Shown here: one piece after another, positions 7,864 through 39,431 of the stretch | How the letters are laid out: each line of letters opens with the position of its first letter | Position numbering within the stretch: the stretch's first letter is position 1 | Sequence record: OZ556245.1 | Strand: one strand, 5' to 3' | DNA length: 64,000 bases | Source of the DNA: a phage | Notes under the pieces: model-generated | Database searches by the model: none | Told to the model about the DNA's origin: nothing | Seen by the model: only the letters and a program-made list of their open reading frames with translations | Position numbers and translations under genes: made by a program

Positions 7864-9278
<1,415 letters not shown>

Positions 9279-10710: not shown

Positions 10711-12298
<1,588 letters not shown>

Positions 12299-36502: not shown

Positions 36503-36652
36503 TTACTGCATGACTGTGATAACTGTCATGATAACACGTTGAATTCCGAACGCAAGAAGACCTCCTGCTACGGCAGGAACAACACCTAAACCCGCCAGTA
36601 AAATGCCACCAGATACTAATGCAGCGCTTGTAATACCTATGAATGGACTCAT
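36503..36652 (-). CDS. small hydrophobic membrane peptide (49 aa)
   Basis: Hand translation MSPFIGITSAALVSGGILLAGLGVVPAVAGGLLAFGIQRVIMTVITVMQ; ATG overlaps gene 52 stop; terminator downstream. Confidence 0.4.
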   Translation of the reverse strand: MSPFIGITSAALVSGGILLAGLGVVPAVAGGLLAFGIQRVIMTVITVMQ

Positions 36653-37977
36653 TTGATTTCCTCTAAATCTTTGGTGTATTCTGTAACTACATCAGTAGTT
36701 TTCCAATATTCGTTTTCTTCTTTTTTAGCTTTAGCTTCTTCAGCAAGTTTCTTTGCTTCGTCGGAAGTCATATGAAAAATATTCATTCCAACTAGTTTAT
36801 CAACATAAGAAGAATACATATCAATTTTAGAAAGTTCTTCGGTCAGTTCTTTGCGAGTTTTACCTTGTACAACAATTTCACCTGAAATTACTTTCTTAAT
36901 GAAATGTGCCTTGGCAAAGGCTAAACGAAATGCTGATTCAGTTTCTTTGATTTTGTTATCAATTCGTTTTTGGACATAAGTTTTACGAACTTCAACGAAG
37001 TCTTTGATTAAATCAACTACGTTATCGTAAACTTGTAGTTTTCCTTTCTCATTAATAACGGTAATATTCTGGGAACGACGCTCAATCAACCCGAAGTCTT
37101 TCATAATTTTTGCATGGCGTTCTTCTTCGTTATCGCTTAAGGAATATTCTTTACGGAATTTAACTTTGAAGCCAAAACCATGCTCACCGCAAGCATCATC
37201 CCACGTAATGAAACCTTTATCTTCAAGCGGGTCTAAGATTTTACTCACATAAGTTTCACGATCATACTTATACGGAATCTCAGTGATATGCATTTGAGTT
37301 CGCGAAGTAAACTTGTACGTTCCACGAATTTCATATTGACCGTCAATTTCAACGACTTCACCACGAAATTCTGGGAATTCTACCTTAGGTTTAGTTACTT
37401 TCTTTCCTTGAAGAGCTTGCAATACAGCTTTCTTGACAGAAGAAACACTATGAGGAAGAATGTAAGTTGCATAACCAGTTGCAATACCGGAAACACCATT
37501 AAGAAGAACAGTAGGAATAATAGGCAAATAGAAAGCAGGCGGAATGTGTTCTTTATCTTGATGTACCGGAGCATATTCAGTATCTTTATATACGTTATAG
37601 AAATTTTTACTTACACGAGCAAAAATATAACGACTTGCCGCTGCTTTTTGAACGGTACGAGAACCAAAGTTTCCTTGACCATCTAACAGAGGAAAGTTAT
37701 TATTCCAAGTATTAGCCATCAAAGCACCTGCGTCTTGTGCAGAGTTTTCACCATGATGATATCCAAGGTCTGCTACACCACCTGCAATAGAAGCGAGTTT
37801 GTGAAACTTATCTTTATTTCCTCGTGCCAAATCAAGAGCTCGAGCAATAACAAATCGTTGAACTGGCTTAAATCCATCAATCATATTTGGGATAGCACGA
37901 TTTTCAACCGTGTACATAGCATAAGCCAATGCTTCGTTATCAATGATACTTTTTAAATCGCGATTATTCAGTTGCAT
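36649..37977 (-). CDS. 52: gp52 topoisomerase II medium subunit
   Basis: 442-aa ORF, GyrA-like N-terminal region with active-site tyrosine context. Confidence 0.9.
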   Translation of the reverse strand: MQLNNRDLKSIIDNEALAYAMYTVENRAIPNMIDGFKPVQRFVIARALDLARGNKDKFHKLASIAGGVADLGYHHGENSAQDAGALMANTWNNNFPLLDGQGNFGSRTVQKAAASRYIFARVSKNFYNVYKDTEYAPVHQDKEHIPPAFYLPIIPTVLLNGVSGIATGYATYILPHSVSSVKKAVLQALQGKKVTKPKVEFPEFRGEVVEIDGQYEIRGTYKFTSRTQMHITEIPYKYDRETYVSKILDPLEDKGFITWDDACGEHGFGFKVKFRKEYSLSDNEEERHAKIMKDFGLIERRSQNITVINEKGKLQVYDNVVDLIKDFVEVRKTYVQKRIDNKIKETESAFRLAFAKAHFIKKVISGEIVVQGKTRKELTEELSKIDMYSSYVDKLVGMNIFHMTSDEAKKLAEEAKAKKEENEYWKTTDVVTEYTKDLEEIK

Positions 37978-37981
37978 AAAT

Positions 37982-38122
37982 TTACCATACTAGTGAATGT
38001 AGTGCCATAATAACATCAGAAATGAAAAGCACGACTTGAATTAATCCGAACATTACTCCATAATATAGTGCTACCAATAAAGTAGCAAGGGCTAATGAAT
38101 AGCCCAAGATTTTCTTAATCAT
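37982..38122 (-). CDS. small hydrophobic peptide (~46 aa)
   Basis: Hand translation [31 protein letters not shown]...; coordinates approximate. Confidence 0.3.
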   Translation of the reverse strand: MIKKILGYSLALATLLVALYYGVMFGLIQVVLFISDVIMALHSLVW

Positions 38123-38273
38123 TAGTAGATAACAACACAAATGTTAAATATGCACACATACCCTGAGATAAAGCTTGTGAAAACACGCTGTTAGCATCGG
38201 TGCAGATAGTTAAAACACATGCTACTATCCAACAAATCATTGAAATAATTCCAATAATTTTCGTAATATTCAT
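38115..38273 (-). CDS. small hydrophobic membrane peptide (52 aa)
   Basis: Hand translation [52 protein letters not shown]; GAGGAGA Shine-Dalgarno 6 nt upstream. Confidence 0.4.
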
Positions 38274-38370
38274 AATATTCTCCTCGATTGTTTTTAAAAC
38301 CTAAAACACCGAAATTTTTAAGATTGTTACGATAGAACTGCATCACATGTTCGTTATGGAAATTACTCAT
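38191..38370 (-). CDS. stp: Stp-like peptide; N-terminus matches T4 Stp, C-terminus divergent and extended to 59 codons
   Basis: ATG overlapping ndd stop (TAATG); reads [28 protein letters not shown]...; first 18 residues match T4 Stp as recalled. Confidence 0.5.
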
Positions 38371-38822
38371 TAGTATACCTGCAAAACAAATTTAAAGTTA
38401 TCAGCCAACATACGGTTCATTTCTTCAAGTGTTTGATACTCAGAATGATGATTACGAGTAAACGCTAAAGCTAACTGACCTTTTCCAAATCCTGTCGTCA
38501 AAGGTTTCATCTTAGAAGCAGGCAAATAAAATACTGCGTATGGAACATTATTATTTGCAATAGTGCGCGCGAGCTGAGACCGACGTTGACGAATATGACT
38601 TAGAACTGCACTGAATCCTTGTTTAGAACGCTGATTACCTACATAAAATCGTGCAGATACGCATGAACCATATGAACCATCGAATTCGCTTATTAAAAAG
38701 TAAAATCCAGGTTTAGATAAAATATCTTTGTGCGGAGTTCCCAAAAACCATTCACCGCCCTTGATTGTACCAATAACAGTAGCACCTGCATTATTCAGAT
38801 CAGTAACAGTCATGTATTTCAT
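38370..38822 (-). CDS. ndd: Ndd nucleoid disruption protein candidate
   Basis: 150-aa ORF directly upstream of stp; length and synteny. Confidence 0.7.
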
Positions 38823-38881
38823 ATTAATTTCCTCTAATTATTTTCTACTCCAAGGCCGCATGAATACACACGGCCGATAAA

Positions 38882-39097
38882 TTAATCGTCGCAGTCGACG
38901 CTCAATTCCCAGAACTCTTCTACGGTATAAGTTTCAGTATCATTTTCAATACAGAAACGTTCATTACTGTTGTTTGCTAAAGTAGCATTAACTGTCATTT
39001 TCTCGCTAGTGCTCTTAAGAGGTGAAATACGAATTAACTGATCACCACTATCTAAGCAAAAAATTTCGCCAACTTTTACATCTTTAAAAATTTTCAT
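38882..39097 (-). CDS. hypothetical protein
   Basis: 71-aa ORF. Confidence 0.5.
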   Translation of the reverse strand: MKIFKDVKVGEIFCLDSGDQLIRISPLKSTSEKMTVNATLANNSNERFCIENDTETYTVEEFWELSVDCDD

Positions 39098-39212
39098 AAT
39101 TCACCTCAGGGAGTATAAAATCCAAATGCAGTTGTTGACCATCCCATCCAATACGGAAAATTTGCACCGACGTAAAACATGAGAATATAAAACCAACCAC
39201 TCAATAAATTCA

Positions 39213-39431
39213 TCATTTTACACCATTCCAAATTGTTTCAACCACAGATTTTAAGCCATTTTGATGAATGTCCATTCCGACAACTGCCATCAAATAAATT
39301 CCAACTACAACTGAACCTAAGGCAAAAATCAGCATGAAAATGAATAAAGCCGGAAAAATATTATCGAAAAACCATTCAATAAATGTAAAAGCACTGCGTT
39401 TACGCTTCATATTTTCCTCACATAAATCCAA
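39213..39431 (-). CDS. small membrane protein
   Basis: 72-aa ORF with hydrophobic helices. Confidence 0.5.
   Translation of the reverse strand: MDLCEENMKRKRSAFTFIEWFFDNIFPALFIFMLIFALGSVVVGIYLMAVVGMDIHQNGLKSVVETIWNGVK

Follow-up and report, generated by a model that had tools for sequence, protein, structure and literature searches.

The open frame that follows ndd in the window, by which we mean the whole 64,000-nt stretch of phage DNA analysed here (record OZ556245.1), is likely to be stp, a member of the Stp/anticodon nuclease activator family, in its T6-type form, with the stop codon lost through a TGA to CGA substitution; we infer that the encoded peptide is still active and that its added tail is under no selection. 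The gene, its family and the T6-type allele are already known, but the stop-loss form, as far as the tools used here show, is present in public genomes without having been annotated or described. Stp is the classic example of a phage anti-restriction factor serving as the alarm for a host abortive-infection nuclease. An allele that joins an intact head to a long unrelated tail is a ready-made natural test of how much change the Stp C-terminus tolerates, and it also illustrates that this gene escapes automatic annotation. The features discussed are listed in Table 1.

Table 1 Coordinates of the stp frame, its subdivisions and related genes in the window.
Feature	Position	Strand	Evidence or remark
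stp frame, 59 codons and TAA	38191..38370	(-)	ORF list; PF08133 over residues 1-24
stp codons 1-18, conserved core, functional according to published work	38317..38370	(-)	18/18 identical to T4, RB18 and T6
stp codons 19-28, T6-type C-terminal segment, counterpart of T6 NFGILGFKNS	38287..38316	(-)	Alignments A1 and A2, translations
stp codon 29, CGA (Arg), site of the stop-loss substitution	38284..38286	(-)	TGA in every other T6-type allele read
stp codons 30-59 and TAA, rest of the read-through tail	38191..38283	(-)	-1 frame of the ac leader and ac codons 1-27
ndd, nucleoid disruption protein, 150 aa	38370..38822	(-)	PF06591 Phage_T4_Ndd, 293 bits; annotated ndd in near-identical phages
ac Shine-Dalgarno GAGGAG	38280..38285	(-)	Overlaps the former stop: TGAGGAG in the T6-type, CGAGGAG in the window
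ac, acridine resistance membrane peptide, 52 aa; ATG 38271-38273	38115..38273	(-)	Annotated in ZCEC15, fFiEco06 and T6
52.1, 46-aa membrane peptide	37982..38122	(-)	DUF7396 PF24129, 81.9 bits, full length; annotated in fFiEco06 and T6
gene 52, topoisomerase	36649-37977	(-)	Next after 52.1
pseT, polynucleotide kinase/phosphatase, intact	8056..8961	(-)	tblastn 302/302 residues, 98.7% identity, no gaps, vs the EPIMAM01 product
rnlA, RNA ligase 1, intact	10714..11835	(-)	tblastn 374/374 residues, 99.7% identity vs the EPIMAM01 product

The window is a Tequatrovirus sequence, about 97-99% identical by BLAST to Escherichia phage EPIMAM01 over the 42 kb compared. A Pfam profile search with the product of the frame returned PF08133, 'Anticodon nuclease activator family', at 51.3 bits (cut-off 25, E = 8.4e-14), residues 1-24 falling on positions 1-24 of the 26 in the profile. 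This match is far beyond chance, and judged by its sequence the ORF is stp. All of the N-proximal 18 residues agree with those of T4, RB18 and T6 (18/18), and the genomic position is typical of T-even stp, with ndd directly upstream, ac and gene 52 downstream, and all of these genes on the minus, early-gene strand. The stp ATG shares one base, the A at 38370, with the TAA stop of ndd (TAATG). At its other end the frame crosses the GAGGAG Shine-Dalgarno sequence and the ATG of ac, overlaps that gene by 83 nt and closes at a TAA (38191-38193) formed across the ac codons GCT and AAC. A preliminary description of this DNA, made from the letters alone, had reported an open frame at 38191-38370 with its ATG overlapping the ndd stop and running on through the Shine-Dalgarno sequence and start of an adjacent 52-aa peptide gene, and both statements were borne out: the frame has 59 codons and a TAA, and the neighbour is ac. 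The 26-aa T4 Stp sequence given there is correct, being the same in a T4 record and in RB18 and matching the window over the first 18 residues, and the 59-aa product was transcribed correctly except for residue 43, which is Y and not I (NYWNYFN, not NYWNIFN).

At 59 codons the window Stp lies outside the range of 25-30 aa spanned by annotated or readable family members, which measure 25 aa in RP180, 26 in T4, 27 in T2, 28 in T6 and 30 in P817. Peptide length is a description of the family and not a part of its mechanism, and natural fusions of 74 aa occur.

In alignments A1 and A2 the 3' end of T-even stp takes one of two allelic forms. The T4-type, found in T4 and RB18, codes TKGVFGRQ before the stop and gives a 26-aa peptide, and the T6-type codes NFGILG(F/S)KNS at the end of a 28-aa peptide that the T6 and fFiEco06 records annotate as stp; T2 carries the T6-type with one extra A, which yields 27 aa. 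The long T6-type 3' end is present in 38 of the 383 phage records that match the stp region of the window, the rest matching over the first ~55 nt only, and six of the 383 are identical to the window across stp. Compared with T4 Stp, the window peptide has the same residues 1-18, keeps the G-(V/I)-(F/L)-G motif at positions 21-24 and has the same gene neighbours; the T4-type 3' end, however, is 9 nt shorter and contains a hairpin, whereas the window has a T6-type 3' end and meets a stop only at codon 60. The likeness to T6-type Stp (T6, MH550421; vB_EcoM-fFiEco06, MG781190) is closer, extending to the ndd-stp-ac locus, the TAATG overlap, the ac Shine-Dalgarno sequence and residues 1-21, which are identical. 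Residues 22-28 differ at two positions (I22V and S28N), and codons 19-29 of the window hold six substitutions relative to T6 and fFiEco06. Codons 28-29 read AGT TGA in every other T6-type allele read (T6, JK23, fFiEco06, SHFML-26, BCPSen_003, F1, NIC06P2 and ECML-123-2) but AAT CGA in the window, where the exchange at codon 29 adds 31 residues and creates the 83-nt out-of-frame overlap with ac.

The difference from T4 in the C-terminal part, to which the preliminary description had drawn attention, is real, but it is not an alteration peculiar to this phage: because residues 19-28 are the common T6-type segment, the divergence of the window from T4 is ordinary allelic variation. The alignment that the same description had proposed, with stp of T4, T2, T6 and RB phages, resolves into a shared head, T4-type against T6-type 3' ends, and the loss of the stop in the window.

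The stop loss itself is a single TGA to CGA substitution relative to the T6-type alleles, and since the TGA at codon 29 is lost, reading runs on for 31 codons (29-59) in the -1 frame of ac. The same 59-aa frame was found in six GenBank genomes (PBM-1, LF73P3, EPIMAM01, UGKSEcP1, UGKSEcP2 and ZCEC15) and in one metagenome contig, OARM01001950.1. Compared with the window, ZCEC15 and EPIMAM01 have 34-41 differing positions, which lie entirely or almost entirely in or just upstream of ndd (38493-38987), and none in 37768-38492. Since the ndd region differs, the carriers are not clonal copies, and the module of stp, ac and 52.1 with the stop loss is thus found on at least two ndd backgrounds; the allele is heritable. 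The DNA across stp is identical in all carriers, so that variation within the clade on which a test for selection could draw is absent. The idea that a genuine stop codon went missing through faulty sequencing or assembly, the former raised in the preliminary description, has nothing in its favour but the involvement of a single base. The same CGA occurs in six GenBank genomes that were deposited separately and in a metagenome contig as well as in the window, the change is a substitution and not a homopolymer indel, and we give such an error practically no chance.

The boundary between the two parts of this region is sharply mosaic, with a divergent ndd side (38493-38987) next to 725 bp of identical sequence (37768-38492) that holds stp, ac and 52.1 and reaches into the beginning of gene 52. 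A metagenome contig (locus L022) has the same ndd type as the window. The 59-aa ORF is unannotated in the four carrier records whose annotation was read (ZCEC15, EPIMAM01, UGKSEcP2 and PBM-1), and the LF73P3 record holds no annotation of any kind. A search of 5.8 billion predicted proteins with the 59-aa product returned four longer relatives only and no 59-aa entry; the ORF was therefore never called in that protein collection.

The openness of the tail frame does not depend on the stop loss. In every T-even allele read that keeps its stop, the frame downstream of it is equally open, for 27-31 codons, and the openness thus predates the substitution. If an average window gene is taken as the standard, 31 consecutive open codons in this frame would have a probability of about 0.007; when the Ac protein was held fixed and its codons were resampled synonymously, the frame stayed open this far in 20% of the samples for the window ac and in 13% for the T6-type ac. 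An open frame is in fact expected from Ac, because this transmembrane peptide is almost free of the Lys, Asn, Asp and Glu codons that create stops there, and chance can account for how long the frame stays open. The residues of the tail differ radically between alleles (the window tail as against GEYYEYRKIIRSYFIY…), and the underlying changes in Ac are conservative. The preliminary description had left the choice between an altered Stp and a fortuitously extended frame. Fortuitous extension is the part that finds support, the tail being out-of-frame ac, unconserved and open even without stop loss; a phage-specific alteration of residues 19-28 does not.

The tail more than doubles the length of the Stp peptide. 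Its net charge is -3.2, it is Tyr-rich and 32% aromatic, and it shifts the net charge of the whole peptide from +1.7 to -1.3. A single-sequence AlphaFold2 model of the 59-aa Stp places a helix at residues 4-19 but is unreliable beyond it (mean pLDDT 56), and a sequence search of the PDB with Stp returned no relative and no solved structure of Stp or of a complex containing it. Selection keeping the tail frame open was considered and rejected, given P = 0.13-0.20 once Ac is taken into account and a frame no less open in alleles that keep their stop. We likewise dropped programmed frameshifting on the TTTAAAAAC run, as inspection by eye found no canonical slippery heptamer in frame.

Published work places the activity of Stp in the part that the window retains. 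Stp inhibits the type IC restriction enzymes EcoprrI and EcoR124I and thereby unmasks the PrrC tRNA-Lys anticodon nuclease in prr+ hosts, after which the cut tRNA-Lys is repaired by T4 Pnk and Rnl1 (PMC3014915). Among T4 relatives the sequence hardly varies over the N-proximal 18 residues, where most loss-of-function mutations lie, and is polymorphic after residue 18; loss-of-function and suppressor mutations cluster at residues 4-14, and deletion of the last 8 stp codons lowers both activities only moderately (PMC3014915, citing Penner et al. 1995). Mutants that have lost stp function are viable and are selected on prr+ hosts in pnk- or rli- backgrounds (PMC3014915). According to a 2025 review in EcoSal Plus (PMC12707154), the way in which Stp binds type IC enzymes has yet to be worked out.

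Because the published activity maps to the N-terminal 18 residues, and these are intact in the window, the 59-aa Stp probably still works. Ribosomes coupled from ndd would translate the whole peptide, its N-terminal helix (about residues 4-19) would still bind and inhibit EcoprrI and EcoR124I, and PrrC would thereby still be released in prr+ hosts, with phage Pnk and Rnl1 repairing the damage. The 31-residue acidic, Tyr-rich tail would be an unselected by-product. For the circuit formed by Stp, PrrC and Pnk/Rnl1, the window was found to encode full-length pseT for healing and rnlA for sealing beside stp, and an active Stp is favoured by this retention together with the intact head. That the 59-aa form is active is nevertheless something we infer, since tolerance of a deletion is a different matter from tolerance of a 31-residue addition, and the tail, given the doubled length, the reversed charge and the aromatic residues, could misfold, aggregate, be degraded or block binding. 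The stop loss is most likely a small, near-neutral polymorphism in a tiny ORF whose 3' end has been remodelled time and again by small mutations.

A consequence for ac is conceivable as well. The T6-type stp stop lies inside the ac Shine-Dalgarno sequence, 10 nt before the ac ATG. In the window, translation of ac may be lower or uncoupled, because ribosomes on stp would read across the ac start site and not terminate 10 nt upstream of its ATG.

The serious alternative is loss of function through the tail, which would destabilise Stp or block it sterically and leave the clade effectively stp-null, with PrrC not set off in prr+ hosts. Glucosylated hmC DNA of T-even phages already resists type I restriction, so a phage without functional stp would lose little. 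The length, acidity and aromatic content of the tail and its reversal of the net charge are compatible with such an outcome, as are the low confidence of the AlphaFold2 model beyond the N-terminal helix and the fact that no annotator or gene caller has called the ORF, and stp mutants are known to be viable and to be selected on prr+ hosts in pnk- or rli- backgrounds (PMC3014915). Codons 1-28, however, contain no damaging change, with residues 1-18 those of T4, and removal of the C-terminal 8 residues is tolerated (PMC3014915). A natural Stp fusion of 74 aa persists on 20 contigs, in addition to a diverged version, and both pseT and rnlA are intact, although T-even phages keep these two genes generally. 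On balance we hold loss of function to be unlikely, at roughly one chance in a handful.

Far less probable is an adaptive change, whether because the tail gives Stp a new property (inhibition of type IC enzymes without release of PrrC, or another target) or because the stop loss was selected through the translation of ac, by read-through or by a stronger hairpin over the ac Shine-Dalgarno sequence. The phage records with the allele do come from several countries and several submitters and include two ndd backgrounds, and a predicted hairpin over part of the ac Shine-Dalgarno sequence pairs the C of CGA with a G, where TGA would give a G-U pair. Against this, the tail is fully explained as out-of-frame ac and is not conserved relative to other alleles, the openness of the frame is unremarkable given Ac, and the same stop loss shows no independent recurrence; the hairpin is not significant (z = -1.19, with 28 of 200 shuffles folding as well), and its strengthening by CGA was rejected on these figures. 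A fainter prospect again is that the tail separates the activities of Stp, the block of type IC enzymes being kept and PrrC release lost, with the head of 18-24 residues perhaps acting as a portable module fused to unrelated C-termini; the notion of a portable head fits three natural extensions, namely the stop loss, the 74-aa Kagunavirus-type fusion and a fusion of Stp to Ac. Were it true, separation by the tail would amount to an escape from the host's 'guard' of its restriction enzyme. We retain the reading of an active Stp with an unselected tail.

Extensions of Stp by small mutations are found elsewhere. A 74-aa protein in which Stp is fused to the downstream ORF occurs on 20 Kagunavirus-like contigs (P0002, P0003; loci L036 and L037, 1501-1725), and a diverged second version exists besides. 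In Raoultella phage RP180 (Kagunavirus; locus L015, 1501-1578), the stop codon of a 25-aa Stp overlaps the start of the next gene (ATGA), and in the other contigs of this kind a one-base change has fused this 25-aa Stp to the downstream ORF to give the 74-aa protein. An 81-aa in-frame fusion of Stp to Ac (P0004) is encoded on the T-even Logan contig ERR13298094_169 (locus L038, 1501-1746) and results from the loss of 1 nt in the AAAA run that follows stp codon 18; as it is found on a single contig only, it may be an assembly error. Like the window allele, these fusions combine an intact Stp N-terminus with extra C-terminal sequence that arose from a small mutation at the 3' end. They differ in that a 1-nt indel places them in frame with a real downstream protein, whereas in the window a substitution leads into an out-of-frame tail.

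The first 24 residues of RP180 Stp are those of T4 Stp, and the gene sits after the lysis genes in this siphovirus genus, a distribution that suggests horizontal spread of stp. Escherichia phage P817 (Drexlerviridae; locus L016) encodes a 30-aa Stp-like peptide at about 1483-1575 with a 6-residue N-terminal extension (PF08133, 48 bits). It lies about 740 bp downstream of a gene annotated as polynucleotide kinase (125-742) that matches the PNKP phosphatase domain PF25109, and this neighbourhood therefore links the trigger peptide to a candidate tRNA-repair function in a T1-like phage.

The T6-type 3' end may itself have arisen by a small rearrangement. In some T-even phages, among them Escherichia phage ADUt (locus L019, 469-624) and Shigella phage sb1 (locus L018, 469-624), a 51-aa Ac paralogue, acA, lies between a T4-type stp and ac; it is 40% identical to Ac (E = 1e-9) and ends in AYIGSKNS. 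Over the last 31 nt of acA and the ac leader (GGTTCTAAAAATAGTTGAGGAGAATATTATG), the DNA matches the end of fFiEco06 stp exactly (alignment A2; window counterpart 38262-38300), and the stretch shared by the T6-type stp and acA begins with the Gly24 codon and takes in the TGA and the ac Shine-Dalgarno sequence. Loss of 157 nt, giving the one-position frame shift that the junction needs, would connect stp at about codon 24 with the acA tail. Because its 3' end equals that of acA base for base, the 28-aa T6-type Stp looks like a deletion chimera of stp and the acA tail, the direction of the event being our reading of the alignment.

In T4-type alleles, the last six sense codons (GVFGRQ) make up a perfect tetraloop hairpin, GGCGUC-UUCG-GACGCC, that lies just before the ac Shine-Dalgarno sequence. 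It was seen in RB18 (locus L002, 861-876), in locus L035 and at other T4-type loci, and is kept base for base in a variant with different flanking codons (ITGVFGRL); the T6-type and window alleles are without it. A scan of IMG/VR for the exact pattern of the T6-type 3' end gave no match, and a scan with an N-terminal Stp pattern gave six loci, five of them 26-aa T4-type and one a 25-aa variant of the T4-type (ending GVFGR, locus L010).

Several smaller observations concern the surrounding genes. Between ndd and stp some phages carry an extra small ORF, of 57 aa in Shigella phage JK23 (locus L005, 435-608) and present also in locus L010 upstream of position 284; as this ORF precedes stp there, the overlap of ndd and stp is not universal. 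A scan for promoters and terminators in 37800-39300 gave no more matches than shuffled sequence. The true start of 52.1 is the ATG at 38122, which overlaps the ac stop codon (AATGATTAA), where the mechanical ORF list had a 52-aa ORF with a TTG start at 37982-38140. A homologue of ac bears the precomputed Pfam label PF26944 Phage_T4_Ac. In a laboratory T2 (locus L020, PV648363, about 700-850) ac is disrupted by an in-frame TAA, and in the mutant T4 clone T4_583L (locus L003, about 890-1050) it is disrupted by a 2-nt deletion; both disruptions are consistent with ac being dispensable.
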